From positions 1 through 44,141 of the IMG/VR virus record IMGVR_UViG_3300034993_000102: 44,141 nt of DNA; one strand, written 5' to 3'. The notes under the pieces were generated by a model. That model was given only the letters and a program-made list of their open reading frames with translations, was not told where the DNA came from and ran no database searches. Numbering within the stretch: the first letter of the stretch is position 1; every line of letters starts with the position of its first letter. Positions 8,311 to 34,677 of this stretch are shown one piece after another. The DNA is from a virus (taxonomy: Duplodnaviria > Caudoviricetes). The position numbers and the translations under genes were made by a program.

Positions 8311-8817
8311 ATGAAAACCTTTTTTGCAATCCTCGCAGCGTTCGGGCTGGCGGTCAGCGCACACGCACAGTTCGGTCAGGGGCCAATCATCGCCAACGCG
8401 GTGACAAACAACCCGCTGAACAGCGTCACTGCGCCTTCAAACCCATTCATCTCGCTTGGCGTGAGCAACAACGCCGCCGTGTATAACTCCAACATCGTGG
8501 CCGGCGCGCGGCGCGCCATTCAAATCGGGCCAAACGGGTTCGGTGTCATCATCAACGCCGCGGGGCCGCTCGCCACGGCGATCACGAATATGTCCGTGAT
8601 CTTTGAACTTTCGGCCAACGGCACCATCTGGCACACGAACACGATTGCCATTAGCTATTCGCCTATGGGCGTCAACTACGCTCCTTTCTTCACGAACATC
8701 ACGCCGGCTGTCTTTCCGAACGTCGGCAACGTGTCCTCGGTTAGGTTACTGCGCATCAACAACACGAATTCCGAGGCCGTGATCTTCACGAACATTTTGG
8801 TCACTACGCGCTTGTGA
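8311..8817 (+). CDS. Signal-peptide-bearing Asn/Thr-rich protein at the head-decoration position
   Basis: MKTFFAILAAFGLAVSAHA|Q classic Sec signal with AxA site; directly after capsid gene. Confidence 0.75.
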   Translation: MKTFFAILAAFGLAVSAHAQFGQGPIIANAVTNNPLNSVTAPSNPFISLGVSNNAAVYNSNIVAGARRAIQIGPNGFGVIINAAGPLATAITNMSVIFELSANGTIWHTNTIAISYSPMGVNYAPFFTNITPAVFPNVGNVSSVRLLRINNTNSEAVIFTNILVTTRL

Positions 8818-9065
8818 TTCGACGCGATGGCAAACGGCTATTCGCCACCGAGCGGCTCTATCTGAACCGGGAGCAGAACCAGGCGGTGCGAGAGGGAGAT
8901 CCGAAAGCAGCGTTCCTGCTGGCCGGCACTGGCGCGGAGATCCCGACGCGGTTCTCGCATTTGTTTGAAGTCGTTCCGCCAGTGGAACCAACGCCGGCGC
9001 CAGTGGTCGGCACGGAACCGGAGCGGAGAAGCACGAGGCCCGCGCGAGCGCGCCACACGCGGTAG
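8814..9065 (+). CDS. Hypothetical head-associated protein
   Basis: GTGA-coupled; small protein after capsid module. Confidence 0.6.
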   Translation: MIRRDGKRLFATERLYLNREQNQAVREGDPKAAFLLAGTGAEIPTRFSHLFEVVPPVEPTPAPVVGTEPERRSTRPARARHTR

Positions 9066-9088
9066 AAAATTTTGGTTGGTTGGTTGGG

Positions 9089-9127
9089 CGCGCGACGGGT
9101 TTTTGAAGTTTCCCGTCGCGCGTTTTT
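9089..9127 (+). terminator. Intrinsic terminator
   Basis: 11-bp stem CGCGCGACGGG/CCCGTCGCGCG followed by TTTTT, at end of capsid block. Confidence 0.8.
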
Positions 9128-9131
9128 AGTT

Positions 9132-9494
9132 ATGAGCCTGAAAGCTATCGACAGACTTTGCTTGCGAGGAATCGTGGGCCGCGAGCCGGTCACGTTCGAG
9201 ATTTCGGACGTTGAATATACTGGCACCTGCGGTGCGCGGGAGATGATGCAGGAGCTAACCGACGGAGGGGTATTCAATGGCCAGGAATTTGCGATCCTTG
9301 TCCCTACTGAAAACATCGCCGACATGGATTCTAAGCCGTCCCAACGCCAGGTCATTGCCGTGTGCGTGGACAGCGACGGCATTCCATGTGTCGCTGACGA
9401 AGCGGTTGCCACTCGCGCGCAATGCCGCATCACGCGGATCGTGCCGTCACTCGCTGGCATAACCTACACGCTGCAAACAGCGCAACGAGGATGA
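9132..9494 (+). CDS. Putative head closure/neck protein
   Basis: Size, beta-rich composition and synteny. Confidence 0.5.
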   Translation: MSLKAIDRLCLRGIVGREPVTFEISDVEYTGTCGAREMMQELTDGGVFNGQEFAILVPTENIADMDSKPSQRQVIAVCVDSDGIPCVADEAVATRAQCRITRIVPSLAGITYTLQTAQRG

Positions 9495-10213
9495 AGCCAG
9501 TTGTCCACATGACGATGAACACGGCGGACTTCAACCGAGTCCTCAGGGATTGTTACGCGCAGAGTTCGCGGACAATGCCCGACTTCATCAACGGCCAAGC
9601 CTATCGGCTCGCATTGGACGCGGTGAACGCCACGCAGCGTGCGGACGCGAACAAGATTGCATGGTCGCTCGGGCAGACGGATCGCCGATTCGTGAATAAG
9701 CGCACGGGAGGGATGCTTAAAACGCCCCGTCGGGTTTACGGAAGCAGCGCCGCCAGCTTGAACCTGTACCGGATCGTCAACTGGAGGCGGGCGCGCACCA
9801 ACAAGGCCGGAATCGCCGGCGCCGAGATGTCGGCGGCGGCCCGCAGGATGCGTGCCGCGGCTCTGCGTTCCACGGCGTTCATTGCGAGCGGCTGGCTATG
9901 GGCAATCAAGCGGCTGGCGGTGGCGACCAGGGACAAGAAGGGGCAAGTTCGTTTCCCGCTGAAGTTATCCGGCCAGCCAAAGGGATGGGCGCGCGTGGCC
10001 ACCTTCACGCTTAACGGTGTGGTCGCGTGCGAGATTGGAAACACCTCGCTGCTCGAAATTTCAAAAGCCAGGACGGGACTTCGCCCGGGCAACCCTATGC
10101 CGATTGCGGAACGCGGCATGGCCATCGCACGACACATGACGGCCAGTAACATGATTGAGCACCTCCGTGGAAAGCTGCAGCCAGTCCTAAACCGCTTTAG
10201 CGCACGTCGATGA
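9491..10213 (+). CDS. Putative tail completion/neck protein (basic)
   Basis: Arg-rich, ATGA-coupled, neck-module position. Confidence 0.5.
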   Translation: MKPVVHMTMNTADFNRVLRDCYAQSSRTMPDFINGQAYRLALDAVNATQRADANKIAWSLGQTDRRFVNKRTGGMLKTPRRVYGSSAASLNLYRIVNWRRARTNKAGIAGAEMSAAARRMRAAALRSTAFIASGWLWAIKRLAVATRDKKGQVRFPLKLSGQPKGWARVATFTLNGVVACEIGNTSLLEISKARTGLRPGNPMPIAERGMAIARHMTASNMIEHLRGKLQPVLNRFSARR

Positions 10214-10686
10214 GCTACGCGAATCACATCGCACATAAAACACAGCTAGCCGCGCAGGCCTATCTGCAAGCCGCGGTGACGGCCGGAACGCTCACGCTGA
10301 TTTCATCGGGCAGCATTTACGCTGGCCTCGGGGCCGACACCGTGACCGCGCAGCGCGTGGTCTGCGTATGCCGCGCCGCGGAGAACGAGGAAACGCTGAA
10401 TATCGGGAACTGGGTGGCAGAACTGGAGATCATAACGCGCTCGCCGTTTGCCGACACGACTGAGGATGATTTTCATTTGCTATGCTCAGAGGTATGGGCG
10501 CACTTTTTCGTTTCAGAGTCCGATCTACAAACCGGCCTAAGCAACGCCACTATAGAATATACCGCTTTCAAGCACTATATTAGGGCTCAGTCTTGGGACA
10601 TAGAGCCTGGGGCGGACGGACAGCCCGCGGAGTGGGTTAGTCGGTTGACGCTTGCGGTCAAGTGTTGCGGTTCAGTTATAGCATAA
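10210..10686 (+). CDS. Putative tail terminator protein
   Basis: Acidic 158-aa protein directly before tail-tube-like genes. Confidence 0.5.
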   Translation: MSYANHIAHKTQLAAQAYLQAAVTAGTLTLISSGSIYAGLGADTVTAQRVVCVCRAAENEETLNIGNWVAELEIITRSPFADTTEDDFHLLCSEVWAHFFVSESDLQTGLSNATIEYTAFKHYIRAQSWDIEPGADGQPAEWVSRLTLAVKCCGSVIA

Positions 10687-10699
10687 CAGAGGAAAATAT

Positions 10700-11197
10700 A
10701 TGGCAGCAGCAGCGGAAATTTTAGTAGGTGCAGCCGTCATCAACGGCATTCAGGGGACCATCGCGACGACGAGCGCGGCGCCAGCCACGCACGTTATGAA
10801 CACCGGCACGCGCACCCTGAGCCACGATTTTAAGATGGAGGAGATCCCAGCCCAGAACGGAGCCACCATCGCGACTATCGTGGCCTGCCAGCGGCGCAAG
10901 ATTCTGGAGCTGGAGTTTTTCCCATCAGGAACGACGCGTGCGAACGCCATCGCGGAAGTGGCGGAACTGACGGCACTCACAGCCTACGCCGTGATCACCA
11001 TCACTCAGAGCGGCACTCCGGCGCTCGCCTCGGCTGGCTTGCAGAAGGTGGGAGGTTCGGCGGCGACCTACAACCTGATGAGCGGGATGACAACGCGTGA
11101 GTCTCGCGACGGAATTCTGAGCGTAGTTATGCGGCTCGAAGCCGTGCAAACCAATTCCAGCGACAGCCTGATTTTTGCCGCTCTCGCAATCGTTTAA
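10700..11197 (+). CDS. Putative tail tube protein, paralog 1
   Basis: Synteny; Ala/Thr/Gly-rich; clear similarity to next gene. Confidence 0.55.
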   Translation: MAAAAEILVGAAVINGIQGTIATTSAAPATHVMNTGTRTLSHDFKMEEIPAQNGATIATIVACQRRKILELEFFPSGTTRANAIAEVAELTALTAYAVITITQSGTPALASAGLQKVGGSAATYNLMSGMTTRESRDGILSVVMRLEAVQTNSSDSLIFAALAIV

Positions 11198-11210
11198 CCG
11201 AGGAACACAT

Positions 11211-11663
11211 ATGCCAGCATTTGAAATCATCGCAGGCGAGGCCGTTATCAACGGTTTCCCCGGCACAATCACCATGACCGGAGCCGCGACGTTCAACGCC
11301 GGCACGCGCAGCTTCTCGGCAGAGTTCAAGTCCGAGGACGTGCCTTCTCAGGACGGCGGGACTATTGCGACCCGTGTGGCGAGCCAACAGAAGCGGAAGA
11401 TCGATGTTGAGTTTTTCCCGACGGGCGCAACCCGCGCCGCGGCAATCGCCGTGGTTGCCTCACTGGAGGCGCTGCTTCCGCTCGACGTTATTACAATCGG
11501 CGGCTCTGGCTCTGCCGTGGCCGCAACGGTTGGGACGTGGAACCTGATTTCCATGCCAGTGTTCAAGGAGTCGCGCGACGGCATCTTGAGCGTTTCGCTT
11601 TCGCTTCTCGCGCACGAATCGACCACGGCGGGCACCTTCGCTGGCCTGACAATCGCCTCTTGA
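11211..11663 (+). CDS. Putative tail tube protein, paralog 2
   Basis: Shares AVING, GTR, G.TIAT, EFFP.G.TRA.AIA, ESRDGILSV with paralog 1. Confidence 0.55.
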   Translation: MPAFEIIAGEAVINGFPGTITMTGAATFNAGTRSFSAEFKSEDVPSQDGGTIATRVASQQKRKIDVEFFPTGATRAAAIAVVASLEALLPLDVITIGGSGSAVAATVGTWNLISMPVFKESRDGILSVSLSLLAHESTTAGTFAGLTIAS

Positions 11664-11666
11664 TGT

Positions 11667-12233
11667 GTGTCTGATTTCTCACAAGCAATCCTCGATCCGC
11701 CGCAGCCGCGTATCATCGGCTTGCGGATGCGCCCGTTCTCGATCGGGCACCGGCTGATCCTGACGCAGATTGATTCGGCGTTTGTGGCGGGCCGCGTGCC
11801 GCTTTACGAAGACCTCATAGCGTCTGTGTTCGTGTGTGCGTGGTCGTGGGAAGAAAACCAACGGCTCGCTGCGTCGCCACGCCGCCGCTGGCTGCATTTC
11901 AAGCTGTGGGGACTGCTCGCCGGGCGGTTCGACATACCGGGCGCCATGCTGGCGTTTCTAAATTACATCCGCACGGGTGACGTTTTCCCCGAGACTAATT
12001 CACCGGACAGCGATTCAACCACGCGCGAATTAGGTTCTGACCAGCTTGCCAGGTTATACCTATTTCTGCGATCTAGCGGCTTCGATGATAGTTCCACGTG
12101 GAACATGCCTATAAACGCTGCCAACGCGATGCACGCGGCGAAGCTGGAGGAGGATGGAAAACTGTCACTTATTGGCCCGTCGCGCCGCGCGCTGTTAGAT
12201 CTGGTTCGTAAGCAACAGGGGGTGGCGGCATGA
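11667..12233 (+). CDS. Putative tail assembly chaperone
   Basis: Between tube genes and tape measure. Confidence 0.5.
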   Translation: MSDFSQAILDPPQPRIIGLRMRPFSIGHRLILTQIDSAFVAGRVPLYEDLIASVFVCAWSWEENQRLAASPRRRWLHFKLWGLLAGRFDIPGAMLAFLNYIRTGDVFPETNSPDSDSTTRELGSDQLARLYLFLRSSGFDDSSTWNMPINAANAMHAAKLEEDGKLSLIGPSRRALLDLVRKQQGVAA

Positions 12234-13402
12234 GCATTCTGAAACTAGCGGCCATGCTCACGCTCGACGGGACCGGCTTCAAGGCGGGACTGAAGGAGGC
12301 TGAGGTTGCGTCGAATAAGTTCGCGGCACAGGTTAAAAGCAAACTCACGGGGGCTTTCGGGGCAACGGCTATCAGCTTCGCGGTCAAGCAGTTGATAGAT
12401 TACAACTCAAAGATCAGGGACACCGCGACGGCGCTGGACATTTCCACGGACGCACTTCAGGAGCAGACGTTTTGGGCTACTCAAAACGGGGCTTCAATGG
12501 ACGACTTGGCGATGGCCTACAAAGGGCTTGCCAAAGCAAGGGCGGAAGCACTCGGAGGAGGAAAGCAGGTCGGGCTGTTCGCCGCGATGGGAATCAGCGA
12601 GGCCGATCTCCGCGGCTCGTCAATCGAATCACTGTTCAAGCGCGTTGCCGACAAGTTCCGTACTACGGACTTCGGTGGAGACAAGATGGCCGCGGCTCAG
12701 GGGTTATTCGGCAGGGGCGGAATGGCGATGCTTCCAGCCCTTGAGCAATCACTTGCGGACGCATCAACCAGGGCACACGAGCTAGCGCAAATAATCGGCG
12801 TGGATGTCAATTCAGCCCTCGAAGAAATGGGCGACCGGCTTGATGTCATCGGCACGGCGCTAAAGAACGTCGGGAGCGTTTCGCTCTTGGGCGTTATCAA
12901 GGGAGTTGACCTAGGCATCACAACGCTTGGCATGGGCATTCTAGGACTGGAGCAGCAGTCCATCCGATTCCTTCACGCGATCCTAGCGACCATCGGCCAG
13001 ATCCCCGGCATGAAAACGCCAGCCCTGCAAGGAATGCTAAGGGACAGGGATGCCGAGGTTGGAATGGCTTCCGACGAAATGTTCAACGCCATGCTGGACC
13101 GATACGATCCAGCGAAATTGGCCGAGAGAACAGCACGCAAAAAGCGAGGCGAGGAGATTTTCGTGGCACCCATAAAACCCGAGGTAATCGCAAAGGCGGT
13201 GGCATTCCACGCCAGCCGCGCCGCTCAACTCTCCGCCGGCTCACTGACCAGCGTCGGCCAATGGAGCGGGCGCAACTTGATCGGCTCGGGCGGAAGCAAC
13301 GACCCAACGGAGAAGCTCAGGCACGAGCAGGAGAAGACCACAAAAGCCGTTGAGAAGCTCGCCGAAAAACTGAAACCCAAAACCCTGATTGCTGTTCCAT
13401 GA
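12230..13402 (+). CDS. Tape measure protein (short, 390 aa)
   Basis: L.LDGTGFKAGL N-terminus, Ala/Gly-rich helical, LFGRGG.AMLP.L motif. Confidence 0.8.
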   Translation: MSILKLAAMLTLDGTGFKAGLKEAEVASNKFAAQVKSKLTGAFGATAISFAVKQLIDYNSKIRDTATALDISTDALQEQTFWATQNGASMDDLAMAYKGLAKARAEALGGGKQVGLFAAMGISEADLRGSSIESLFKRVADKFRTTDFGGDKMAAAQGLFGRGGMAMLPALEQSLADASTRAHELAQIIGVDVNSALEEMGDRLDVIGTALKNVGSVSLLGVIKGVDLGITTLGMGILGLEQQSIRFLHAILATIGQIPGMKTPALQGMLRDRDAEVGMASDEMFNAMLDRYDPAKLAERTARKKRGEEIFVAPIKPEVIAKAVAFHASRAAQLSAGSLTSVGQWSGRNLIGSGGSNDPTEKLRHEQEKTTKAVEKLAEKLKPKTLIAVP

Positions 13403-15915: not shown

Positions 15916-16506
15916 ATGTCATTAGAGAACCTATGCTTTAACCTCAGCACGGGGCGCTTCGTGCGTTCCGCGACATCGCCGACGCCGACGGACTGGCCGG
16001 TATTTGGTTACGGGGACGCGCGCGATTTCGCCGTTACGTTCGTTTCGGCCACCAGCGATACGCGCGTGCAGGTCGAGACCGCGGTGACCAGCGCGAAGAT
16101 AACCCTATCAAATCCCCTGACGCTCGCCGAGTGGACGAGCGCGGACGCCTCGGCAGCGACGGCCAGTAGCGCATTCCCGTTCCTTCTGCCGGTTACAAGC
16201 TCGAACCTGTCAACGTTTATGAGCGGCAAGATCACGAACCAGATGGCCTATTGCGAGTTCCTGCTGGGGACCGCTTCCGGCTCGAACCGATACGGATCTA
16301 CGATCTACATCAAGCCACAACTCAACACGGGGGTAACGAGCGTGGCCGTGGTTAGCGACGTGGCGCTCGGGAAGAATGAGGCGCAGGGAATCTATGTCAG
16401 CAAGGCTCCAGCCAAAGGGACAAGGATACTTTTCACGGACGAAATCACCGACCAGCTTTATTCCGTCGGGTTTGCTAACGGGCAGTTCCTGGCCGAGCTT
16501 TTATGA
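15916..16506 (+). CDS. Putative baseplate/fibre attachment protein
   Basis: YGD...F.V.F N-terminal pattern reminiscent of upper-baseplate domains; no signal peptide. Confidence 0.45.
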   Translation: MSLENLCFNLSTGRFVRSATSPTPTDWPVFGYGDARDFAVTFVSATSDTRVQVETAVTSAKITLSNPLTLAEWTSADASAATASSAFPFLLPVTSSNLSTFMSGKITNQMAYCEFLLGTASGSNRYGSTIYIKPQLNTGVTSVAVVSDVALGKNEAQGIYVSKAPAKGTRILFTDEITDQLYSVGFANGQFLAELL

Positions 16507-17894
16507 GAAACCTCTTTTTCGCTTTGATGATGTGCGCCGTGAGCGCGGAAGCGGCCTACGTGAGCGTCACTGTGACCTTCACTAACCGCACGATGATTGG
16601 CTCTAACTTCGTCGTGAACGGCGCCACGAAGCGCTGGACGAACGCGCCGCTGAACACCGTGGATTGGCTCACGACGAACTCGCCCGCGGGTAGCGCGACG
16701 AACCTTCAACGGTTCATGGCCGGGAACTTCCCGGCGTATTACTCGAGACTCACGACGGCAACCAACGTGGTGCTTTCCGGCACGGACCTTCAGTGGAGCA
16801 TTCCCGACAACGCAACCGTGGCGGACTCGTGCTGCGCCATCTCGACAAACAGCGCACCGACGACGAACTTTCACGCCATCCTCGTGCCGTGGGATACGCA
16901 GCCCTGGTCAACGAACCGCACCAACGACGCGGACGAACTCATTTACGGGCTGAACAAATACGCGCTCACGAATGCGTTTTCAACGAACGCGCAGGCGCTG
17001 TCGAACTACGTTTCAACCGGCTCAGGGGCGCAGACGTTTGGGAATAAGACGCTGACGAACTCGACGATTGCCGGCGGCACGCTCTCAACCAACGTCCTGA
17101 CGAATACGATCCGCGCGAATATCAACCTCGCCGTCATCACGAACATAACCGGATTCGGCGGCACGCTTTCAAACAACGTCGGCACGAACTGGACACGGCT
17201 GAACGTGGACAGGCTTCACGCCACGAATGCCATCGTTGACGCGCTGACAAACCGCATACTGGTGAGCACACAGATCGTCAGCTACGGAGCGGTCAAGATC
17301 AACACCAACGCAAACAGCGGCGTGGCTGCGTCGATATTGCTGGACAGCGTTTACTCGTTTTTTGCGGCCGGTAACTACGTCGGGATCGAGAACGTGGACA
17401 CCGGCCAGCAAATGCTGCGGATTGAATACGGCGGCAATACGGTAATCCCGGCACCACTGGTCGCGAGCAACGGCGTGACCGCCTACACCAACGCGCTCAC
17501 CGGGAACAACCTCACGAACTCAGTCATCCGCGGGACGAATGTTTGGAACGGGTCAGTGATTTACACGCCGCGCGCGAACAGCGGGCTCGCCAATGGATTC
17601 AACTCCGGGATCATCCTCGGGACAAACGTGTACGTACAACTCTCGGGGCCGTCGGGGCTTTACACGAACGTCGGCTTCGCGGCTGAACCTTCCGGATCTT
17701 ACCATATCGTGCGGCTCGCGATGCCAGCGGCCAACGTGACCATCCGAAACAATGACGGCCTGGAGGCGACGGCCGAGAACCGAATCACGACCGGCACGGG
17801 CGGCGAGCTGGTGCTCACGAACAATCCAGCCTGGCTGAAAGTCATTTACGACGGCACTAGCAGCCGGTGGCAGGTCATCGATCGGAGCAACTGA
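16503..17894 (+). CDS. Signal-peptide-bearing, TN-rich fibre-like protein
   Basis: MRNLFFALMMCAVSAEA|A signal; about 25 TN dipeptides; C-terminal YDGTSSRWQVI like tail-fibre domains. Confidence 0.7.
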   Translation: MRNLFFALMMCAVSAEAAYVSVTVTFTNRTMIGSNFVVNGATKRWTNAPLNTVDWLTTNSPAGSATNLQRFMAGNFPAYYSRLTTATNVVLSGTDLQWSIPDNATVADSCCAISTNSAPTTNFHAILVPWDTQPWSTNRTNDADELIYGLNKYALTNAFSTNAQALSNYVSTGSGAQTFGNKTLTNSTIAGGTLSTNVLTNTIRANINLAVITNITGFGGTLSNNVGTNWTRLNVDRLHATNAIVDALTNRILVSTQIVSYGAVKINTNANSGVAASILLDSVYSFFAAGNYVGIENVDTGQQMLRIEYGGNTVIPAPLVASNGVTAYTNALTGNNLTNSVIRGTNVWNGSVIYTPRANSGLANGFNSGIILGTNVYVQLSGPSGLYTNVGFAAEPSGSYHIVRLAMPAANVTIRNNDGLEATAENRITTGTGGELVLTNNPAWLKVIYDGTSSRWQVIDRSN

Positions 17895-17897
17895 CGA

Positions 17898-20800
17898 ATG
17901 AAAACCTTTCTCTCCCGCCTCATCACGCACGCCCCGCGCGCGCTCGTGGGAATCGCCGTTCTCGCTGCGGTGTCATTACCCACGGGCGCGCTCGCCGTCA
18001 CCAACTCTGTCTCTTTTGATCTCGCGAACTACGGCGCCACATCGGTTTCTCGCAAGCTGGTCCGCATTGAACCCACGACGGACACCTTCCCGCGCGCGGA
18101 CGGAAACACGGTCATCGGCCGGGATTACGGGTTTGTTCGGACGGACGCGAACGGCAAGTTCACAAATTCGATGGTGACTGGGACATACAAGATCACCTTC
18201 ACGAACAACTTTGTGGCGAGCGTTTTTCAGATCACCGTTCCCGACACGAACTTTTCCGGGATTCTGACCGCAGCAGAGTTGACCAGCACGGGGACGAACC
18301 TGCCGAGCAACCTCGCCGGCTACTCCCAGACCGCGGCAAATAGCATGTTCGCCAAGCGCACGAATGCGTTCCAAATCATGCTCACGAACAGCGTGGCCAT
18401 GCACACGAATCGAGGGTTTACGAATATCGACTGGGTTTCAGGTGTGACGGGATTCGTGAGCGGAGCAACAATCAAGCTGGGCGTGGATGTTGCTGCGGCT
18501 GGCGGTATCAGCGCGGCCACGGCGACAAACATCGTCAACGCGAACGCCATCGCGATTCAATCGGGAAACGGCAACGCCACCACGCTAACGAATGCAACGC
18601 TGCGCGCCAACGCGACGAACGATCCGCTGATTGTGCGCGACGCCTCGGGGAGGGCCATCCTTAGCTTCGGAACCAACAACATCCTTTGGCTTGGGACAAA
18701 CGGCAGTTTCGACAGCCAAACCGCCGTGCTGCTTTTGTTCCCGCTCGCTGGCGGCTCGAACCAGATCGGGATTCCGTTCACGAACGGCGCGCAATACGGG
18801 ATTCGCCAGCTCGGCACCTATCGCACCGAGACTGCGGGGAGCAACTACACGGACTCCACCTGGTCGCTCGGATGGAACCTTGAAGGGAAAAACAACACCG
18901 AGCCGATTGCCGGGCTGCAAATGGAGGCCGCTTATCGCAACAGCACGAACGACGCATTCCTTTGGGAAACGTTCTGGAGCGTCACCGGAACCAATCGCGC
19001 CTACTCGCAGCGACCGTGGGGCTTCACCGCCAACCGCTCGAACGGCGTCGCCTACACCATCAACCAATACAGCGAGAATCTTTCCATCTACGGCGGGACC
19101 AGCACCGAACCACGCCTTCAAATGACGAGTGGGAACTCCTGGTATTTCTGGAGCCCTGTTTTCGGAAGTAACGCGATCCTGTGCGTGGCGGGGGATGGCA
19201 AGGTTGCGCCCGTGACGATCACTTATCCGCTCGCGGCCAGGACCAATACCACGGTTGGCTTGCCGCTGGCCCTCGTCATCACGAATTTCTGGAACGACAA
19301 CCTGACGCTAACGGCGCCGAATGCGCAGGCGGGCGGGGACGATCTCGCGCTGCGGTTGCGCGCCGTTGGAAACGGCTATTCGCTGGACTGGGTAGCAAAC
19401 TATTACAACGACGCGATCATCGAGAGCTACCGATGGCTGCTGCACCAGACTAACAGCGGGAACGCTTACAGCAACGTCATGGTAATTGACCGGGGGCGGG
19501 TGGGGATAAATCTCCCGCTGGTTGCAGCGGGCATCACGCCCACAAACGGCTTCGACGTGAACGCGCACTCAGGTTTTCGTAGCAATGTTTGGATGCATGG
19601 ACTCAAAACAAACGCCTCGGTGGTTTCATACGTCGGGAAAACCACGGGTGGGGAATTGGTTGAAACGGCCGTCCCGGCTGCCTCAGGCGGAACCAATACC
19701 CTTTTCTCCACCAATGGCGTCACGCTTGGCTCTGCCGGGACAGTGAACTGGACTGCGGGCGTCACGGGATATCTCGCGGGTGCCATTGCCCATCTCGGCG
19801 TGAACGTCACGGGCAGCGGCGCGGCGGCGATTGGATGGCAGACAAACGGCGTGGACGCGGCCACCAACGCCAACGTGTTCGTAGTGTCAAACACCGCGAG
19901 CATTCTTTGGAACGCGCACTCGAACAACAGCGGGCGGGTGTCGTTCATCGCGGACGTGGCTACGGGCGTCACCAACGGACTGAATACCCGCGTCGGAAAT
20001 CTCGAGGGCGTCACCAATTCCTTCGTGACGCTCACCACCGCGCAGGACATCACAGGCAGCAAAAGCATAGGCTCGCTGACGAACAAGACGAACGCGACTC
20101 TGAGCGGGCAGTTCATCCGAACCGTGCAGCGCCTCGGCAACGGGACCGTGCCGGCCGCTTCAAATAATTTCGTCATCGTCACCAACGCGGATTTCACCCT
20201 CGACTTCGCCGGCACGCGCACCACGGGCGACCGCTTCGGACTGGCCATCTCGAACTACAACGAGAACACCGATATCACTGTCACCTGGCCCGGGAACGTT
20301 TACGACTCGACCGGCTACGTCGGCGCCTCCGTGCTCAAGAGTAACGCGGTTTATTCGTGGGAGTTTGAATATCTCACGAACGGCGGGAGCAACACGTTTT
20401 ACATGGTGCCGAAGGTTTATCCAACCTACTCGCTCGTTGCCGGCGTGGGCCTCGGCTTCGCGACGAACTATTACACGATCACGCTCACGAACACTGGAGC
20501 GGCGTTCCTCACCAACTGGGCAAACTCCATTTCCAACCTGGTGCAGACGAAGCAGTACGGGACCGCGGCCCTCAGCAACATCGCCAATATCACGAAAACC
20601 GCAGAGGTAGTGAGCGGCGCCGGGAACGGAAACACAAACTACCTGCTGACGCTCTCGACGAACGCGCTAAACGATTTCTACCTCGGCTCATCTAACGTCC
20701 ACATCTACACCGTGGGTGGCTCGACGCTCGGATCGCCGATTTTCTGGACGGCCTCTATCACGAACTTGAGCGCGATCAGTTGGGGGATCAATTTCAGCAG

Positions 20801-20945
20801 CCTGACGAACCGCTGGCGCTACTCGGGGATCTACGGGACAAACGCGCCTTCCGTGCTCACAAACGGGACTTGCCTGATGCTTGCGGGCCGCACCGACGGG
20901 ACGAATTGCACCGTGGGTTACACGTATTTTGCGCCCGGCTTATGA
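17898..20945 (+). CDS. Large signal-peptide-bearing, TN-rich tail fibre-like protein
   Basis: Basic N-region, hydrophobic core, ALA|V site; RTDANGKF..GTYKITF fibre N-terminal-like domain; VTLTTAQDITGSK fibre repeat; about 40 TN. Confidence 0.7.
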   Translation: MKTFLSRLITHAPRALVGIAVLAAVSLPTGALAVTNSVSFDLANYGATSVSRKLVRIEPTTDTFPRADGNTVIGRDYGFVRTDANGKFTNSMVTGTYKITFTNNFVASVFQITVPDTNFSGILTAAELTSTGTNLPSNLAGYSQTAANSMFAKRTNAFQIMLTNSVAMHTNRGFTNIDWVSGVTGFVSGATIKLGVDVAAAGGISAATATNIVNANAIAIQSGNGNATTLTNATLRANATNDPLIVRDASGRAILSFGTNNILWLGTNGSFDSQTAVLLLFPLAGGSNQIGIPFTNGAQYGIRQLGTYRTETAGSNYTDSTWSLGWNLEGKNNTEPIAGLQMEAAYRNSTNDAFLWETFWSVTGTNRAYSQRPWGFTANRSNGVAYTINQYSENLSIYGGTSTEPRLQMTSGNSWYFWSPVFGSNAILCVAGDGKVAPVTITYPLAARTNTTVGLPLALVITNFWNDNLTLTAPNAQAGGDDLALRLRAVGNGYSLDWVANYYNDAIIESYRWLLHQTNSGNAYSNVMVIDRGRVGINLPLVAAGITPTNGFDVNAHSGFRSNVWMHGLKTNASVVSYVGKTTGGELVETAVPAASGGTNTLFSTNGVTLGSAGTVNWTAGVTGYLAGAIAHLGVNVTGSGAAAIGWQTNGVDAATNANVFVVSNTASILWNAHSNNSGRVSFIADVATGVTNGLNTRVGNLEGVTNSFVTLTTAQDITGSKSIGSLTNKTNATLSGQFIRTVQRLGNGTVPAASNNFVIVTNADFTLDFAGTRTTGDRFGLAISNYNENTDITVTWPGNVYDSTGYVGASVLKSNAVYSWEFEYLTNGGSNTFYMVPKVYPTYSLVAGVGLGFATNYYTITLTNTGAAFLTNWANSISNLVQTKQYGTAALSNIANITKTAEVVSGAGNGNTNYLLTLSTNALNDFYLGSSNVHIYTVGGSTLGSPIFWTASITNLSAISWGINFSSLTNRWRYSGIYGTNAPSVLTNGTCLMLAGRTDGTNCTVGYTYFAPGL

Positions 20946-21511
20946 AGTGGATCGCATTTCTGATCGTGTTTTCTTGCACGGCTCAAAGCCTGCGCCAACC
21001 CGCCTACGTGGCGCAGCTACAGCGACCAGCGGCCGCCGCGGCTGGCACGGAATGGGTTACAGGCGTCACGGCTTTCGGCACCCCGAGCAACGTGTTCGAT
21101 CTTGAAATCGGTTGCCGGATTCAGATCGGCGCGTCCGATGTCGTGGTTACACATCTTGGGAGATGGGTGAAATCCGGCAACAGCCAAACTCACGTCATTC
21201 GCATTCAGGGGATCGATTGCAACACGCTCGCCAGCGCCACCGTGGATTGCAACGGGGCGGCGGCCGGCGCTTTCGTTTACGCCGCGCTGGCTAGTTCGTT
21301 CACGATGACGAACGGGGCGTATTATCACATCCTGTCTGCCGAATCCAACGGGGGGGATGATTGGTATTACGCCACCACGACGGTTTCCACGACGGGCGTT
21401 GAGGCGGCATTGAATCGCGCCTATGCAAGCCTTGGAGGCGCGGCGGGATGCACTGCTGAGGACGCAAATCAAATCTTTGGGCCGGTGAGCTTCAAGTATT
21501 CATCGCCGTGA
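20942..21511 (+). CDS. Exported beta-sandwich protein (DUF4082-like)
   Basis: MKWIAFLIVFSCTA signal-like start; VTHLGRW..GNSQTH...LASA pattern; start moved to ATG 20942. Confidence 0.6.
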   Translation: MKWIAFLIVFSCTAQSLRQPAYVAQLQRPAAAAAGTEWVTGVTAFGTPSNVFDLEIGCRIQIGASDVVVTHLGRWVKSGNSQTHVIRIQGIDCNTLASATVDCNGAAAGAFVYAALASSFTMTNGAYYHILSAESNGGDDWYYATTTVSTTGVEAALNRAYASLGGAAGCTAEDANQIFGPVSFKYSSP

Positions 21512-22140: not shown

Positions 22141-22226
22141 TGGTCCTTCGTGATGATGGCGTGGAGCATGACGAGGGCGACGCTGGAAAAGACGATGCCG
22201 TGGATGAGCCAGACAGTTGTTTGCAT
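22137..22226 (-). CDS. Small hydrophobic peptide, 29 aa (MQTTVWLIHGIVFSSVALVMLHAIITKDQ)
   Basis: ATGA-coupled to SGNH start; single TM-like stretch. Confidence 0.4.
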   Translation of the reverse strand: MQTTVWLIHGIVFSSVALVMLHAIITKDQ

Positions 22227-25200
22227 TCTCGGATTCTGCCTGATGAGCGCGCGGGGCGCAACGGTAATCGGTGACGAGGCCGCCCTTGTCAGCTTGCCGA
22301 ACCACGCGCAATACGGCCTGACGCCACACTTCAAGCCGGGAGATGGCGAGACGCCGGATTTCAACCCGCCCATCTTCAGCTTCAACGCGAGAACCAATTT
22401 CGCGACATCGGACTCGACGCTGGATTCGCAGGTTTACCAATATCAGTTGCAGGTTTTCCGTGAGACGCAGATGGACGTTTACACAAACGACGTTGTTTTC
22501 TACATGGGGGACTCTTACACGGCGGCTTACAACTGGTCGCAATACGTCACCAATTATCTGATGCTGAAGCCGCGCTGGCAGTTTCAAATGGCGGTTTCCG
22601 GTGACACCCTGGGGCGAGCTTACAGCAACCAGTGGCCGCTGGTGAAGGCGATGCTTGCAGCCACTAATTTCCCGGCTTTGCAGAATGGCAACGGGCGAAT
22701 CATTTTGGAGTTCCCGATTGGCGTGAATAAGAACTACGCTCCGTCCTACGTCAACCCGCCGGAGTATGAGTTCCGGGATTGGATCGCCACTTATTCAAAC
22801 ATCGTTTGGGAGGCAGGGCAGTCGAACATGCTCGTGGTGGGTTTCACAATTCCCGAAATCTTTGGTGACGCCACGGCGGGAACTTACGGCGCATCGACGA
22901 ACTACTGGCCGGACTATTGGCGAACCCCGATCAACAATTTTCTCCTGCACACACAGAAGCTGTGGCACGTCGTGGACATATTCAGTTTGTATCCGTGCGG
23001 CGTTCCGATTTGCCCCGGCACGGATGGCATTCACCCGGACGACTATCACCCCATCTCGACAAATGTGGTTTTCACGCTGCTCTACTCCAACGCGATCAAC
23101 GTGCGGACCACGAGCAACCTTGAGAACCGACACCGGCCTTTCGTCGGGAACGAATCGACCAACCTGAACCTTTATTGGCGCACGCTCTACATCGGAACGA
23201 ACGGATCAACGAACGCCGTCAGCGCGACGCGCACTTACGTCGTGGCCACCAACGCGACGAATTGGAATCGCTCCTTTCTCGCCGATGACAACTACCTGAC
23301 GAACAAGTTCTCCACCAACCTATTGATGTTCAGCGCGGCGACGCGCTCCAACGCCGCCTGGTTTCTCGGTACCAATGGCGGGGCAGACAAATGGCTGGCG
23401 CTCACGAATTGGGCAGCGACAGCGACCAACTCCGCGTGGTGGGTAGCAACAACGGCGTGGGACACCAACAACTTTTTGCTGAACAGCGAAGACCTCGGCA
23501 TCATGTCCGTGCTCCTGCTCTCGCAACTCAACACCAACACCGGCACATGGACGAACCGGCTCGCGGACAACATAGGGCGCTTTACCGTCTGGGCGCACGG
23601 CGCACCAGACAAGCTCATCTTCTACGACTGCAACGCTTGTTATCCGCTGACACAGCGGACGCTCGCGCTCTCCTACGTCTGGGGCCGGTCGCTACTCTCG
23701 ACGCTGCAACGCACGAACTTGCTGGCGGCACTGGAGAAGGTTTGCACGTTCATGGAGCAGGGAGGGGGCTTTTACAAATCAGAGCACCTTTACGTCGCGA
23801 CGAACGATTACACCTTCACATACGACAAGCCGGAAACCTCGCCCTGGTTCAACTCCCAGAAATACGGCGAGTCGCACATCTCGGCAATGTGGCACAACTG
23901 GAGCCTTGCGCCGCTCGCCATTTACGCGGATTCAACCGTGGGCCGGCGCGTGTTCGATCTGTGGGTGAACTACCTCATCGGACGCGGCTCGCCGTGGGTC
24001 AACAGCAGCCGGCACATGATGGGGCGGGGCTACGGCTTCGCCAACTTCGGCACGCCAGACGTTTACGGCAGTGCGATTTTCTACGCAGCGGCACTGCCTG
24101 AGGCGGGGCTGACAAATTCGCCGTGGATGAAGAACACCGTCGATTGGTTCAGCCGCATGATTCAGCCGGGCGCGCACGAGGTTAGCGGGGAATGGCAGGA
24201 CGGCGGACTGGGAGGCTCAAAGGAGCTTTACTGGGCAACGCCGACTTTCGGGCGCAACGCCGCGCTGCTGACCCGCGACGGCGTGGCGTGGCATCATTAC
24301 CAGAACCAGAACACGATTCAGGCGAACAGCGATAACGTTTGGCCGGACCTGATGATCGAGGCGTTTCCAATGTGGCCACCGGGAACGCCGGCCACCAACA
24401 CCGCGGCGCGGCTATTCATTGACGACGGAGCGGTTATTTCCACCACGATTGCGGCAAACCGAATCGACAGCTTCACGAATGGCGTGAGCGTGGTGTTCGA
24501 GGCGCGACCCTACGGCCCGGAAGGCAATCACTCGCTCAATTCCGACTTGGCGCTTCAGGTCATGGCCTACGGCGGACTGAGCACCGGCAACGGCTCGGAC
24601 GTGTGCTGTATCGGCGGCGGATTCGGCTTCAAGCCGTGGGCGAATAACGTACCGCTAATCAACGGCGCCGGCGCTTCGTTCCCTGACCGCGGCCACGCAG
24701 CGCAATCGTCCTACTCGCGCATCACCGCCTACACTAACTCCGACGATTTCACCTACTTCGTTGGCGACGCGCTCGGGACCGTCACGAACGGCACGAGCAG
24801 TATTTCCAACATCGTGACGGCCTACCGCAGGCGCGTCCTGCACATGCACCGCCCGGGCGAGCCGAGTTACATCGCCGTGCGCGACGAGATTCCGACCGGC
24901 TCGACGCTGACCACGAACCAGCTTGTTCACCACATCCAGGTCGCCGGGCTGACTAACCTGAGCACGAGTGGGTTTCGTTTTCCGTCCACGAACTACGCCG
25001 GCCAAACGATGAGCAATTATCTCGTTGTGGCGATGGTCAACGGGACCGTGAGCAACTTCACGGGCACGAACGTCCTCCGAAATGCCTTCACAAGCGTTTG
25101 GACGACGGACGGGGATTCAACGTTTCGGCGGGCCAACGCCGTTTGGTTCAACTCCACTAACAGCGTTTTCCATTGGCTGCTTTACCCGGTGCAGTCCGGC

Positions 25201-25368
25201 GCCTCGCAACCTTCGACGCTCACTGTCTCGACGGACGGCGCCTTTTCGGTCGTCAACGGCTCGCAGCGCGACTCCATCACATTTGCCGAAAGCAGCGTGA
25301 CGCTGGATTTGATCGTCACGTCAACCAACAACCCCGTGCGCTTCCGCGGCCTGAAATTCCGCCCATGA
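22204..25368 (+). CDS. Exported multidomain putative depolymerase: SGNH esterase plus heparinase II/III-like lyase fold
   Basis: PGDGE..FNPPIF N-terminal motif; YMGDSYT, AVSG, GVN, DGIHP (SGNH); PYGPEGNHS..., NNVPLING, YFVGDA, RRRV, YIAVRDE (heparinase II/III-like). Frame is open from 21508, so true start is uncertain. Confidence 0.7.
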   Translation: MSQTVVCILGFCLMSARGATVIGDEAALVSLPNHAQYGLTPHFKPGDGETPDFNPPIFSFNARTNFATSDSTLDSQVYQYQLQVFRETQMDVYTNDVVFYMGDSYTAAYNWSQYVTNYLMLKPRWQFQMAVSGDTLGRAYSNQWPLVKAMLAATNFPALQNGNGRIILEFPIGVNKNYAPSYVNPPEYEFRDWIATYSNIVWEAGQSNMLVVGFTIPEIFGDATAGTYGASTNYWPDYWRTPINNFLLHTQKLWHVVDIFSLYPCGVPICPGTDGIHPDDYHPISTNVVFTLLYSNAINVRTTSNLENRHRPFVGNESTNLNLYWRTLYIGTNGSTNAVSATRTYVVATNATNWNRSFLADDNYLTNKFSTNLLMFSAATRSNAAWFLGTNGGADKWLALTNWAATATNSAWWVATTAWDTNNFLLNSEDLGIMSVLLLSQLNTNTGTWTNRLADNIGRFTVWAHGAPDKLIFYDCNACYPLTQRTLALSYVWGRSLLSTLQRTNLLAALEKVCTFMEQGGGFYKSEHLYVATNDYTFTYDKPETSPWFNSQKYGESHISAMWHNWSLAPLAIYADSTVGRRVFDLWVNYLIGRGSPWVNSSRHMMGRGYGFANFGTPDVYGSAIFYAAALPEAGLTNSPWMKNTVDWFSRMIQPGAHEVSGEWQDGGLGGSKELYWATPTFGRNAALLTRDGVAWHHYQNQNTIQANSDNVWPDLMIEAFPMWPPGTPATNTAARLFIDDGAVISTTIAANRIDSFTNGVSVVFEARPYGPEGNHSLNSDLALQVMAYGGLSTGNGSDVCCIGGGFGFKPWANNVPLINGAGASFPDRGHAAQSSYSRITAYTNSDDFTYFVGDALGTVTNGTSSISNIVTAYRRRVLHMHRPGEPSYIAVRDEIPTGSTLTTNQLVHHIQVAGLTNLSTSGFRFPSTNYAGQTMSNYLVVAMVNGTVSNFTGTNVLRNAFTSVWTTDGDSTFRRANAVWFNSTNSVFHWLLYPVQSGASQPSTLTVSTDGAFSVVNGSQRDSITFAESSVTLDLIVTSTNNPVRFRGLKFRP

Positions 25369-25468: not shown

Positions 25469-25681
25469 ATGAGATCGAAGGAGCCGGTGCTCTGGAGCTG
25501 GCGCGGGATGCTGTCGGTTCTGATGCTTTACGTGGCGGCGGAAAACACGGCCATCCGAAAGGAACTCCGGGCCCTGAACGTTTCAGCCACCGCGAACGCC
25601 GTTCGCCTGGTGCGAATTGAGCGACTGTTGCAGATCGAACAAGTGAACACAGAAAAAGCCTATGGACTCATCCCTCATTGA
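25469..25681 (+). CDS. Small membrane/coiled-coil protein (lysis region)
   Basis: Hydrophobic stretch followed by heptad-like segment. Confidence 0.5.
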   Translation: MRSKEPVLWSWRGMLSVLMLYVAAENTAIRKELRALNVSATANAVRLVRIERLLQIEQVNTEKAYGLIPH

Positions 25682-25931
25682 CCTGATACCGGAAAAGTAT
25701 CGCACCTACCTGCTGCTGATTGTGGCGGTGTCTCCCTATATCACCCGCGCATTGCACGCCGTTATGAACGGGCGCGGCATCAAGGGCATTTTCAGCGCCA
25801 TCTGGCTAGGCACGAACACGCCAAACCCTGGATCGTCCAACCCGCAAAACAAGAATGGACCGCCTGACGCCGAAGAACCCACGCTGATAAAGGATCTCCG
25901 CAAGCTCGACGACCCGAAAAGGCTGCCATGA
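25662..25931 (+). CDS. Putative holin
   Basis: Small, hydrophobic/amphipathic N-half, charged C-tail, located after tail genes. Confidence 0.45.
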   Translation: MDSSLIDLIPEKYRTYLLLIVAVSPYITRALHAVMNGRGIKGIFSAIWLGTNTPNPGSSNPQNKNGPPDAEEPTLIKDLRKLDDPKRLP

Positions 25932-26041
25932 AAACCACTCTCATCCTTTGCCTTCTCGCGCTAATCTTGGCCGGCTGTTCAAGCGCAGACACGGTGGGCC
26001 ACGCATGGCCGCGGGCTTCGACGACATCAACGAATTTATGA
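25928..26041 (+). CDS. Small lipoprotein, 37 aa
   Basis: MKTTLILCLLALILAG|C canonical lipobox; ATGA-coupled both ends; not in ORF track. Confidence 0.7.
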   Translation: MKTTLILCLLALILAGCSSADTVGHAWPRASTTSTNL

Positions 26042-26382
26042 AAATCCAGATCGCAATCGCAACGGCCGCACTGAGCTGCGGGTTAGTCGGGTGCATCAAT
26101 CCCGTGCCGTCAACGAAGTTCAGCGGCACAATCGGAGGCCAGCCGTTCGAGTTCGAGGGCCATAAGCAAACCAGCGTGGAGAAGCTCGCGCTCGAACTCA
26201 ACCAGGGGACCAATCATTTCACGCTCTCAATCGGAAAGCTGAGTTCCGTCAACGACGAGCGGGTTATTTCCAAGGCCTACGCCGGGCAAGCCGCGGTGAT
26301 GAAAACCGCTTTCGACGGCGCGAACAATCTCGTCAGCAAGATGATCGAGGGCGGGGTGAAAGGCGCGAGCCCGGCGCCGTGA
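26038..26382 (+). CDS. Lipoprotein (possible spanin component)
   Basis: MKIQIAIATAALSCGLVG|C lipobox; start moved to ATG 26038. Confidence 0.65.
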   Translation: MKIQIAIATAALSCGLVGCINPVPSTKFSGTIGGQPFEFEGHKQTSVEKLALELNQGTNHFTLSIGKLSSVNDERVISKAYAGQAAVMKTAFDGANNLVSKMIEGGVKGASPAP

Positions 26383-32225: not shown

Positions 32226-32231
32226 CAAGTT

Positions 32232-32402
32232 ATGGCTAACAGATGCAAACCACCGAAGAAGCGAACGACAATTTCGATCAGTGATACGACCCACGCCATC
32301 GGCAAAAAGATCGCGGCAATGGAGCGCCGCAACTTTTCGGGGATGCTGGCGAACGCCATCGAGGAGCGGTGGCTGGCGAAGCAGAAGGAGCGCGCAGCGT
32401 GA
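32232..32402 (+). CDS. Ribbon-helix-helix regulator (Cro-position), 56 aa
   Basis: MANRCKPPKKRTTISISDTT...ERRNFSGMLANAIEERW; not in ORF track; similar to 31637-31906 product. Confidence 0.75.
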   Translation: MANRCKPPKKRTTISISDTTHAIGKKIAAMERRNFSGMLANAIEERWLAKQKERAA

Positions 32403-32650
32403 AAACCAAGGACGTGACCATCGTTTACGCCATCGTGGACGAGGCTGCATACCGCCGCGACGGCCATCGGATGCTCTACGAGCAGCACGGGCTTTTATCG
32501 CACACGGTTTCATTGGGCGACATGGTGGCTGCTAATCACGCGCTGGAAACGGCGCTCCAACAGATCGCGTCGGGCTTTGGCGAACCAGCGAAGATCGCGC
32601 AGGCGGCGCTGGAAGCGGATACCGCCAGAATCGTGGAGGCGCTCAAGTGA
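32399..32650 (+). CDS. Hypothetical protein
   Basis: GTGA-coupled both ends. Confidence 0.55.
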   Translation: MKTKDVTIVYAIVDEAAYRRDGHRMLYEQHGLLSHTVSLGDMVAANHALETALQQIASGFGEPAKIAQAALEADTARIVEALK

Positions 32651-32679
32651 ACCGTAAAACCAAAACCAAAACCAAACCT

Positions 32680-33051
32680 ATGCCAGAAAAACAACATACC
32701 GCAGAAGAAAACATCCACGCCAAGCACGTTTTCAACACCGAGGAAACAATCGAACTTTCTCGCGAGCTTGCCCGTGTTTGCACCGCAGTTGCGACGCTTC
32801 AGGCCGAGAAGTCTGCCGTGACGAAAGATTTCGCATCGCGCATTGAGACGAACGAAATCAAAAGCTCGTTGCTAGTTGACAAAATCACCAGCGGTTACGA
32901 GATGCGGCCAACGGACTGCATTGTTCAATTCGACCCGAAGAATCGCTCGAAAGATTACTTCCGCAAAGACTCTCTTGGGCTGGCCGGAGAATTCATCGAA
33001 CGCCGGGAAATGACTCAAGCGGACTTTCAGCTCTGCCTGCCGACCGCATGA
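32680..33051 (+). CDS. Hypothetical phage coiled-coil protein
   Basis: ATG after (AAAACC)n leader; SGYEMR...REMT..Q..L ending common in phage early genes. Confidence 0.65.
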   Translation: MPEKQHTAEENIHAKHVFNTEETIELSRELARVCTAVATLQAEKSAVTKDFASRIETNEIKSSLLVDKITSGYEMRPTDCIVQFDPKNRSKDYFRKDSLGLAGEFIERREMTQADFQLCLPTA

Positions 33052-33302
33052 ACCCGATGCGCCGAACGCAGTGGTCTCTGCTCTTCGCCGAACTCCGCGC
33101 TTGGATCTCCGCTATCCCCGAGGCGCGCCACGCGGCCACCGCGGTTTGCGATGGCTGCGGGAAGCGGCTGTTCCTAGTCAGGGGCCGGCACAGCGGGAAA
33201 TACTTTTTCTCGCACGATGGACTGAGCGGGTGTGAGTCGGCTCGGGCTGTGTTCTTCGACAACAAGCAGGAGGCCGAAACGGCCAGGGAGGTTTTCAAGT
33301 GA
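33048..33302 (+). CDS. Hypothetical protein with CxxC
   Basis: Coupled ORF. Confidence 0.55.
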   Translation: MNPMRRTQWSLLFAELRAWISAIPEARHAATAVCDGCGKRLFLVRGRHSGKYFFSHDGLSGCESARAVFFDNKQEAETAREVFK

Positions 33303-34273
33303 GCGAGCAAAAATTCATTGCATCAATGATCGGTTTCAAAGCCACCAACGCGGATTTAACCTGCCAGGGTTTCAAGTTTGAAATCGGGAAATGGCACGAG
33401 ATCGACGGCGAGATCGAACTGTGCAAGCGCGGGTTTCACTTCTGCGTTCATGCGTCTGGGCCATACGCCCACTACTCACAATCGGACGCGCGCGTTTTCA
33501 AAGTCGAAGCGGAACAGGTTTTGAAAGTTCCGACCGAGGCCGGGGCCGATTTTAAGCTGGTGGCGAGGCGCATTCGGCTGGTGAGCGAAATCACGCCGGG
33601 AGGAGACGGGAACACCGGAGACAGGAACACCGGAGACGGGAACACCGCAGACGGGAACACCGGAAACAGGAACACCGGAGACAGGAACACCGGAAACTGG
33701 AACACCGGAAACTGGAACACCGCAGACGGGAACACCGGAGACAGGAACACCGGAAACTGGAACACCGGAAACTGGAACACCGGAAACAGGAACACCGGAT
33801 ACGGGAACACCGGAAACAGGAACATCGGAGACGGGAACACCGGAGACGGGAACACCGGAGACGGGAACACCGGAGACAGGAACACCGGAGACAGGAACAC
33901 CGGATACGGGAACACCGGAAACTGGAACACCGGAAACAGGAACACCGGAGACGGGAACACCGGAGACAGGAACACCGGAAACTGGAACACCGGAAACGGG
34001 AACACCGGAAACAGGAACACCGGATACGGGAATTCAGCCTCTTACTGCACTGGTTTTTTCTGCTCAAAGGATCCGCGCGTTCTATCGTTCGATGTCCAGA
34101 CAAAGCTGACGCACGCCGAATTTCTGGAGAATCACCCGGAGGCCAATACGCTTTCCGAGCTACTCCTAAAGCCGGAACTGATTGAGTTCGCGCCGTTCAA
34201 AAGGATTCCGGGGATCACCAAGTCGAAGCTCGCGAAGTTGCACGCGGCGCACCTGAAAGCGAGGGCCGCGTGA
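33299..34273 (+). CDS. Pentapeptide (NTGxx) repeat protein with N-terminal C..GFHFC domain
   Basis: GFK...LTCQGFKFEIG...LCKRGFHFC domain followed by about 29 G[DNY][GRW]NT units. Confidence 0.85.
   Translation: MSEQKFIASMIGFKATNADLTCQGFKFEIGKWHEIDGEIELCKRGFHFCVHASGPYAHYSQSDARVFKVEAEQVLKVPTEAGADFKLVARRIRLVSEITPGGDGNTGDRNTGDGNTADGNTGNRNTGDRNTGNWNTGNWNTADGNTGDRNTGNWNTGNWNTGNRNTGYGNTGNRNIGDGNTGDGNTGDGNTGDRNTGDRNTGYGNTGNWNTGNRNTGDGNTGDRNTGNWNTGNGNTGNRNTGYGNSASYCTGFFCSKDPRVLSFDVQTKLTHAEFLENHPEANTLSELLLKPELIEFAPFKRIPGITKSKLAKLHAAHLKARAA
33602..34033 (+). repeat. 15-nt coding tandem repeat GGA NAC NGG AAC ACC, about 29 units
   Basis: Directly visible. Confidence 0.95.
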
Positions 34274-34677
34274 CCAACCTAATCGCCAGTCTTTACCTGC
34301 TCGCCGTCACAAATTGGATGGATGTCACGCCACTAACTCCGGCCCGAGGTGGGTGGGAATATTCTCAAGAAACGCGTTCGTTTGAGTACGCGAACCGCAG
34401 GGAATCCGCAGGGGTTAAAAAATGGATCGGCCACGTCCGCACCAACACCTATGCGCGCGTGATTCACGGCGGGAAAACAAACGACGTTTTGCTTTCCGAG
34501 GGTGAGCCGGTTCTCGAAATCATCCGCGAGTTGACGCCCATCGTCACGACTACCTGGAGCACGAACGAAGTCACGCATGTGTATCAGCCGCTAATATGGG
34601 TCACGAACGGGACTGTAGGAATTCGAGCGATTGCTTTTACAAACAACCTTTTCTGGGGAGCCAACAGCAACCGATGA
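34270..34677 (+). CDS. Putative exported TN-rich protein
   Basis: Hydrophobic N-terminus, 7 TN dipeptides in 135 aa. Confidence 0.55.
   Translation: MTNLIASLYLLAVTNWMDVTPLTPARGGWEYSQETRSFEYANRRESAGVKKWIGHVRTNTYARVIHGGKTNDVLLSEGEPVLEIIRELTPIVTTTWSTNEVTHVYQPLIWVTNGTVGIRAIAFTNNLFWGANSNR

Follow-up and report, generated by a model that had tools for sequence, protein, structure and literature searches.

Non-cytoplasmic proteins of Bacteroidota are O-glycosylated by a motif-driven system whose transferase is reported as unidentified (PMC12871550). Human TMEM260 is an O-mannosyltransferase that makes Man-O-Ser/Thr, has an essential Asp52 and has distant bacterial homologues (PMC10214176). No report of a substrate for a bacterial TMEM260, of a Thr-Asn motif or of protein glycosylation in Verrucomicrobiota was found in the open-access literature. 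The subject here is the dipeptide Thr-Asn (TN), which is strongly over-represented in leader-bearing proteins of IMG/VR record IMGVR_UViG_3300034993_000102, a complete-looking tailed-phage record of 44.1 kb whose entire 44,141 nucleotides form the window analysed. The TN excess is real and lineage-linked. Since it is shared by exported proteins of the presumed host lineage, T-N may well be a host sugar-attachment signal. Our preferred reading, to which we assign a probability of about 0.4, is that T-N is the recognition motif of periplasmic glycosylation in the host, with the sugar most likely on Thr and transferred by a TMEM260-like enzyme.

Five phage proteins, named here by start position, contain TN at three to five times the chance level, and four of them have export signals. 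Leaders were called by eye and with a crude hydropathy script of our own, not with SignalP, and significance was assessed with 5000 shuffles per protein. The 168-amino-acid (aa) protein 8311 (8311–8817, plus strand) lies immediately after the major capsid gene and has a Sec-type leader and 6 TN against 1.8 expected (NT 2; p = 0.004). Shuffle p-values are ≤0.0002 for the other four: the tail-module protein 16503 (16503–17894, plus strand; 463 aa; Sec-type leader), with 25 TN against 7.1 (NT 4) and 44% of its Asn residues preceded by Thr; the fibre-like protein 17898 (17898–20945, plus strand; 1015 aa; Sec-type leader), with 42 against 13.3 (NT 10); the leader-bearing DUF4962/heparinase II-III-like polysaccharide lyase 22204 (22153–25368, plus strand; 1071 aa, or 1054 from 22204), with 32 against 8.4 (NT 5); and the early-region protein 34270 (34270–34677, plus strand; 135 aa), with 7 against 1.4 (NT 1). 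Pooled over seven leader-bearing proteins, TN is found 114 times against 33.2 expected (z = 14) and ranks first of 400 dipeptides, while 31 other phage open reading frames (ORFs) together have 16 against 18.2. The latter pool excludes the pentapeptide-repeat protein 33299 (33299–34273; DUF7666 and Pentapeptide_2), which has one TN and 28 pairs in the reverse order, NT; a second pentapeptide-repeat protein is located at 35826–36458 (Pentapeptide and DUF5758). The prohead protease-major capsid fusion used as a control (6376–8274, plus strand) has 2 TN against 2.3 expected, and ORFs of the tube and baseplate region have none or one. Two leader-bearing proteins are exceptions with a single TN each: 20942 (20942–21511, plus strand; 189 aa; TN expected 0.7), which has a weak DUF4082 match below cut-off, and the predicted lipoprotein 26038 (26038–26382, plus strand), which has a lipobox-like Cys. 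The hand counts in the first-pass annotation were all correct, as was its view that the order bias exceeds composition; its claim that the enrichment is confined to exported proteins holds for the pooled sets but is inexact, given the two exceptions and 34270, which has no basic n-region.

The TN sites draw on all eight possible Thr-Asn codon pairs, with an excess in the coding frame only, which indicates selection at the protein level; a DNA-level motif was rejected as its cause on the same grounds. The motif was also expected to be distinct from the canonical N-x-S/T sequon, and TN-x-S/T is indeed at the expected level in the phage (22 against 21.0) and in the candidate host order (65 against 59.9), so that sequon was rejected. 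In a Kiritimatiellia-like set chosen partly by its TN pattern, the figure is 52 against 31.9. SN is weakly raised in the leader-bearing phage proteins (36 against 23.5; z = 2.6 among 400 tests) and not in the host samples, which narrows the earlier proposal of a (T/S)-N signal to T-N. Composition or a fibre fold was rejected as the cause by 12 T/N-rich fibre, spike and baseplate proteins of T4, P22, S-LBS1 and P-SSM2, in which TN is at chance (77 against 77.6; ratio 0.99), and by TN-poor homologues of 22204 in other clades. On a related phage contig (L012, 12305–14617) in a metagenome-assembled genome (MAG) labelled Acetobacteraceae, the capsid gene is followed by that of a leader-bearing, fibre-like protein with 7 TN against 7.3 expected, and export and motif are thus separable.

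The same excess is present on chromosomes of the candidate host lineage, the Verrucomicrobiota order of MAG G002. A 400-kb sample was taken as 20 pieces of 20 kb at even steps from two genomes of this order (G189 and G197), leaving out ORFs cut at an edge, 19 ambiguous ones and one giant. In the 73 signal-bearing proteins, TN is found 113 times against 69.6 expected and ranks first of 400 dipeptides; in the 116 cytoplasmic proteins it is found 71 times against 65.2 and ranks 122nd. In the signal-bearing set there is no excess of NT, SN (43 against 56.0), TD or TQ. The comparison of signal-positive with signal-negative proteins suggested in the first-pass annotation therefore places the excess on the signal side in both the phage and its candidate hosts. 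Among clades, observed-to-expected (O/E) ratios were compared for exported and membrane proteins of fewer than 1500 aa with matches in at most 10 genomes; outside the order, they rest on 12–20 kb around bamA per genome (3–5 kb for a few). TN is raised in the order (1.65, n = 160) and in clades B3 (1.44, n = 71) and B2 (1.30, n = 30), and not in B1 (0.86, n = 78), A (0.71, n = 160), C3 (0.81, n = 76), C5 (0.80, n = 45), C6 (0.94, n = 64), C2 (0.69, n = 31) or C1 (0.54, n = 9). The trait is wider than the order, being found also in the Kiritimatiellia-like class.

A genome-wide triple-TN DNA pattern proved unreliable as a proxy for the trait, and its counts are not used as evidence. In G105, G017, G029, G050 and part of G065, the high counts come mostly from out-of-frame 7- and 10-bp repeats. 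A length-mod-3 check on these unused counts gave 34/46 in G167, 27/58 in G197, 15/28, 16/30 and 13/19 in clade B2, and 16/27 in G053, which is without PF11028. Dispersed arrays of 7-bp and 10-bp DNA repeats occur in G105, G017, G029, G050, G062 and G085, with up to dozens of sites in a genome, and DNA-level pattern counts are thereby confounded.

The lyase 22204 allows the motif to be followed within one protein family. A profile of 22204 and five homologues matches exoHep (6LJA) and Atu3025 (3A0O) with E-values of 1e-14 to 2e-13, which places 22204 among the alpha/alpha-toroid and beta-sandwich lyases and not among beta-helix proteins. An insert of about 200 residues, absent from all five homologues, contains SGNH-esterase-like motifs. 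The exoHep residues Y390 and H555, catalytic according to the title of structure 6LJL, align to the invariant Tyr610 and His776 of 22204. By these sequence features 22204 is likely a depolymerase, probably an esterase-lyase whose nearest relatives would lie in bacterial polysaccharide gene clusters. Four homologues were found among 201 genomes of the order, all TN-rich: three (24 against 5.6, 20 against 5.9 and 14 against 5.6) adjoin genes that by eye resemble polysaccharide-synthesis genes, and the fourth (18 against 5.2) is in a context that by eye is prophage-like. Five full-length homologues in G040, G085 and G101, from other clades, have 4 TN in total against 10.0 expected; the same fold is thus TN-poor elsewhere, and TN depends on lineage rather than fold. 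TN sites turn over rapidly in this family: of the 71 TN columns in a six-sequence alignment, 40 occur in a single sequence, 10 in four and 2 in all six. The lyase homologue encoded in G346 (L394, 168–5255) comes after a TN-rich fibre-like ORF and before genes resembling Mu-type late genes, making this a second phage with the TN-rich depolymerase family.

The candidate enzyme was sought with profiles of three families, PF11028, STT3 and PF08409. PF11028, the TMEM260-like family, is found in 15/15 genomes of the order (E-values 1e-26 to 1e-32) and in 52/151 genomes of the phylum. It is present in clades B2 (7/7) and B3 (15/15), so that all three TN-rich clades have it, in the TN-poor clade B1 (11/12), and in only 1/69 genomes of clades A, C1, C2, C3, C5 and C6. 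Among 14 control genomes, only Bacteroides thetaiotaomicron has it. The proteins have 10–14 predicted membrane helices, and an Asp-Ser-Gly-Glu-Leu motif is found in 12/12 copies fetched (L409–L420). STT3/PglB was found by profile in 0/11 order genomes, where only archaeal controls matched and sensitivity for bacterial PglB is unproven, and 4/151 phylum genomes were over the STT3 cut-off. The TMTC-type profile PF08409 gave 0/60 over cut-off and was uninformative, as the controls gave no match either. The TMEM260-like family is also a candidate for the unidentified O-glycan transferase of Bacteroidota.

The residues around TN, measured against those around other Asn in sets chosen partly for TN content in the case of the hosts, show a context common to phage and hosts. 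Proline directly after TN is avoided in the phage (0/114 against 4.5), the order (12/428 against 29.2) and B3 (9/244 against 13.4; pooled 21 against 50.1, p = 2e-6), and Pro at N+2 is favoured in all three sets (pooled 82 against 43.5). Such a shared context may be the trace expected from the binding groove of an enzyme.

On the preferred reading of T-N as a host glycosylation motif, the host would be a member of the G002 order, and proteins 8311, 16503, 17898, 20942 and 22204 would be Sec-exported during infection. A host enzyme would then transfer a lipid-linked sugar to their T-N sites, and selection would have raised the density in the fibres and depolymerase to about one site per 19–33 residues, giving a coat that stabilises or shields them. 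After export, these parts could be added to the particle at lysis, or else function on the cell surface. The TN system is probably a novel form of envelope modification directed by a motif. The broadest form of the proposal appears unlikely to hold in full: an undescribed general Thr-Asn glycosylation by a bacterial TMEM260 homologue in the order and the Kiritimatiellia-like class, phages whose Sec-exported fibres and depolymerase are densely glycosylated by the host and attached outside the cytoplasm, and the same family as the missing Bacteroidota transferase.

Several observations weigh against glycosylation at T-N. All support for a modification is statistical, and the host excess (1.6-fold) is weaker than that of the phage (3.4-fold). 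Protein 20942 has a leader and just one TN; 34270 is TN-rich without a classical leader, with one TN even at residues 2–3. BamA of the order has no excess (33 against 55.0, n = 30), and neither have the order's BamA loci when core proteins are kept (73 against 78.8); the filter against core proteins was chosen after core envelope proteins had been seen to lack the excess. The motif accordingly marks a subset of exported proteins, not all of them. BamA and its neighbours were rejected as a reporter, there being no excess even in the TN order. PF11028 is present in 11/12 genomes of clade B1, where TN O/E is 0.86, and its co-occurrence with TN rests on about two independent lineages. In Bacteroidota, Asn follows the modified residue in less than 1% of cases (PMC12871550), and the enzyme family would therefore have to differ in specificity here. 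The host assignment is putative, the best terminase matches being only 40–46% identical and found in 6/381 order genomes. Finally, the avoidance of Pro after Asn fits an N-linked glycan equally well.

An N-linked glycan is accordingly the first of four alternatives. In it, the sugar would be on Asn and the preceding Thr would supply the recognition hydroxyl, as in a reversed gapless sequon, through a non-STT3 GT-C enzyme that may itself be TMEM260-like. The depletion of Pro after TN resembles that at X of N-X-S/T, the requirement for Asn is strict, neither TD nor TQ being raised, and Thr is preferred over Ser. The scarcity of STT3, in profiling for which only archaeal controls matched, and the O-linkage made by the one characterised TMEM260 (PMC10214176) stand against these points, and we consider the N-linked form rather unlikely.

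Also unlikely, and slightly more so, is a non-glycan reader of T-N in the envelope, which might attach phosphoethanolamine, phosphocholine or an acyl group, or bind T-N as a chaperone or export tag. A protein that may speak for this is 34270, which begins with M-T-N, ten hydrophobic residues and T-N. It has no basic n-region and hence no classical signal peptide, and a low-confidence model (predicted local distance difference test, pLDDT, 45) reads residues 4–18 as a beta-strand; for these two reasons its export is not established, and the start is possibly a non-classical leader or a beta-strand. The same type of start is conserved in three homologues, and is also found without basic residues in a chromosomal protein of G197 (L389, 15447–16466, minus strand). 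A non-glycan reader could also accommodate the absence of the motif from BamA and the presence of PF11028 in the TN-poor clade B1. Dense, fast-turnover sites along whole proteins, however, are more in keeping with a stoichiometric coat than with a sorting tag.

The pairs could instead be unmodified, reflecting a structural or physicochemical preference of the lineage, such as a turn or cap motif or hydration, in extracellular proteins. The TN columns of the lyase alignment that are conserved in four or all six sequences would fit this, as would the 21 of 32 TN sites of 22204 that a low-confidence model (pLDDT 34) places in neither helices nor strands. The same fold is TN-poor in other clades, though, control fibres are at chance, and none of NT, SN, TD and TQ is in excess among host signal-bearing proteins, which together render an unmodified motif distinctly improbable. 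Buried beta-helix ladders of Asn and Thr, or a DNA-level repeat, are largely refuted and highly improbable: 16503 and most of 17898 have no assigned fold and 7- and 10-bp repeats with TN hexamers exist in some Verrucomicrobiota genomes, but 22204 matches toroid and sandwich lyases, TN spacing in the phage proteins is aperiodic, the beta-helix tailspike of P22 has 2 TN against 2.8 expected, and the excess involves every codon pair and is limited to the coding frame.

The host lineage was approached through the terminase, for which the best E-values among the 80 genome loci listed belong to three Verrucomicrobiota MAGs (44% identity); the order and phylum were sampled outward from one of these, G002. 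In a BamA tree of 109 genomes, G001 and G002 are apart from the Luteolibacter clade and adjoin an Opitutales-like clade, and genomes of the G002 order are 2.6–8.6 Mb in size. We infer that this order corresponds to Limisphaerales/Pedosphaerales, the other clade names having the same standing, and that the phage host belongs to it. The first-pass annotation had pointed to a Pedosphaera-like host, which agrees with the shared excess in exported proteins of this order and is weakened by the distant terminase matches and by the occurrence of the trait in the Kiritimatiellia-like class. Neither 381 genomes of the order nor 251 genomes from the class of G154 yielded a prophage above 46% identity. 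Close phage relatives were not recovered, capsid matches being 38–39% and terminase matches on viral contigs at most 44% identical; the P0007 and P0012 scans gave 34–46%, except for one 297-bp piece at 75%, and the P0140 search found no viral contig.

Other genes of the window include a lambda-type terminase, a portal, a protease-capsid fusion, a short tape measure protein, an integrase and replication and methylase genes. Two similar ORFs of 162–165 aa without family match, tube-like by position, are located within 10700–13402, and together with a tape measure protein of only 390 aa they suggest a short tail. Protein 8311 has no family match and its homologue search returned only itself; 16503, without a Pfam or PHROG match, is likely a fibre by position only. 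Residues 700–1015 of 17898 resemble C-terminal clusters of phage tail fibres (ESM Atlas feature scores 0.90–0.91, a lead only), one of which has PF26209 in 59% of its members; searches of metagenomes and of cultured phages gave no homologue of 17898. A likely lysis block (25469–26382) consists of two small membrane proteins and the lipoprotein 26038. Among the ORFs scanned, no glycosyltransferase was recognisable and no endolysin was recognised by Pfam and PHROGs, and no tRNA was found. Among the sequencing runs listed, one DNA run, possibly the source, contains the phage, and there is no RNA run.

If the preferred reading of T-N as a glycosylation motif is correct, the sequons of bacterial protein glycosylation would gain a new member, from a poorly cultured, widespread lineage, and with it a named, testable enzyme family. 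Tailed phages would then also be able to complete their adsorption parts in the periplasm using the chemistry of the host, in departure from the usual assembly entirely within the cytoplasm. Already, an excess of TN in the leader-bearing proteins of an uncultured phage can be used as a sequence cue to the lineage of its likely host.

Compared with exoHep and Atu3025, 22204 keeps the fold-family match and the Tyr and His at catalytic positions, and differs in its SGNH-like insert of about 200 residues and in its 32 TN. The PglB/STT3 motif (D/E-X-N-X-S/T) resembles T-N in containing Asn, in belonging to exported proteins and in the avoidance of Pro after Asn; here, however, the hydroxyl residue is at −1 and not at +2, and STT3 was not found in the 11 order genomes profiled. 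The S-layer O-glycosylation at GT/S in the anammox bacterium Ca. Kuenenia is also a dipeptide-scale O-glycan motif in a bacterium of the PVC group (bioRxiv 10.1101/2020.12.03.409086), whereas GT (124 against 135.4) and GS (111 against 112.6) are not raised in signal-bearing proteins of the order. Order genomes share with human TMEM260 the GT-C family domain (PF11028/DUF2723) with a conserved acidic N-terminal motif; the human enzyme, however, is specific to a domain (IPT beta-strand B) and is not guided by a motif (PMC10214176). Unlike in Bacteroidota, where the motif is D-(S/T)-(L/I/V/T/A/S/M) with periplasmic transfer proposed and Ser slightly preferred (PMC12871550), no preceding Asp is seen: DT (74 against 85.5) and DS (57 against 72.4) are not raised in signal-bearing proteins of G189 and G197 and lie outside the top 10 phage dipeptides, and Ser is not raised here. 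As in Bacteroidota, a short linear motif is enriched lineage-wide in non-cytoplasmic proteins, PF11028 being found in B. thetaiotaomicron as in the TN lineages, and, apart from 34270, 20942 and BamA, T-N is tied to such proteins both in the hosts (rank 1 against 122) and in the phage (114/33.2 against 16/18.2).

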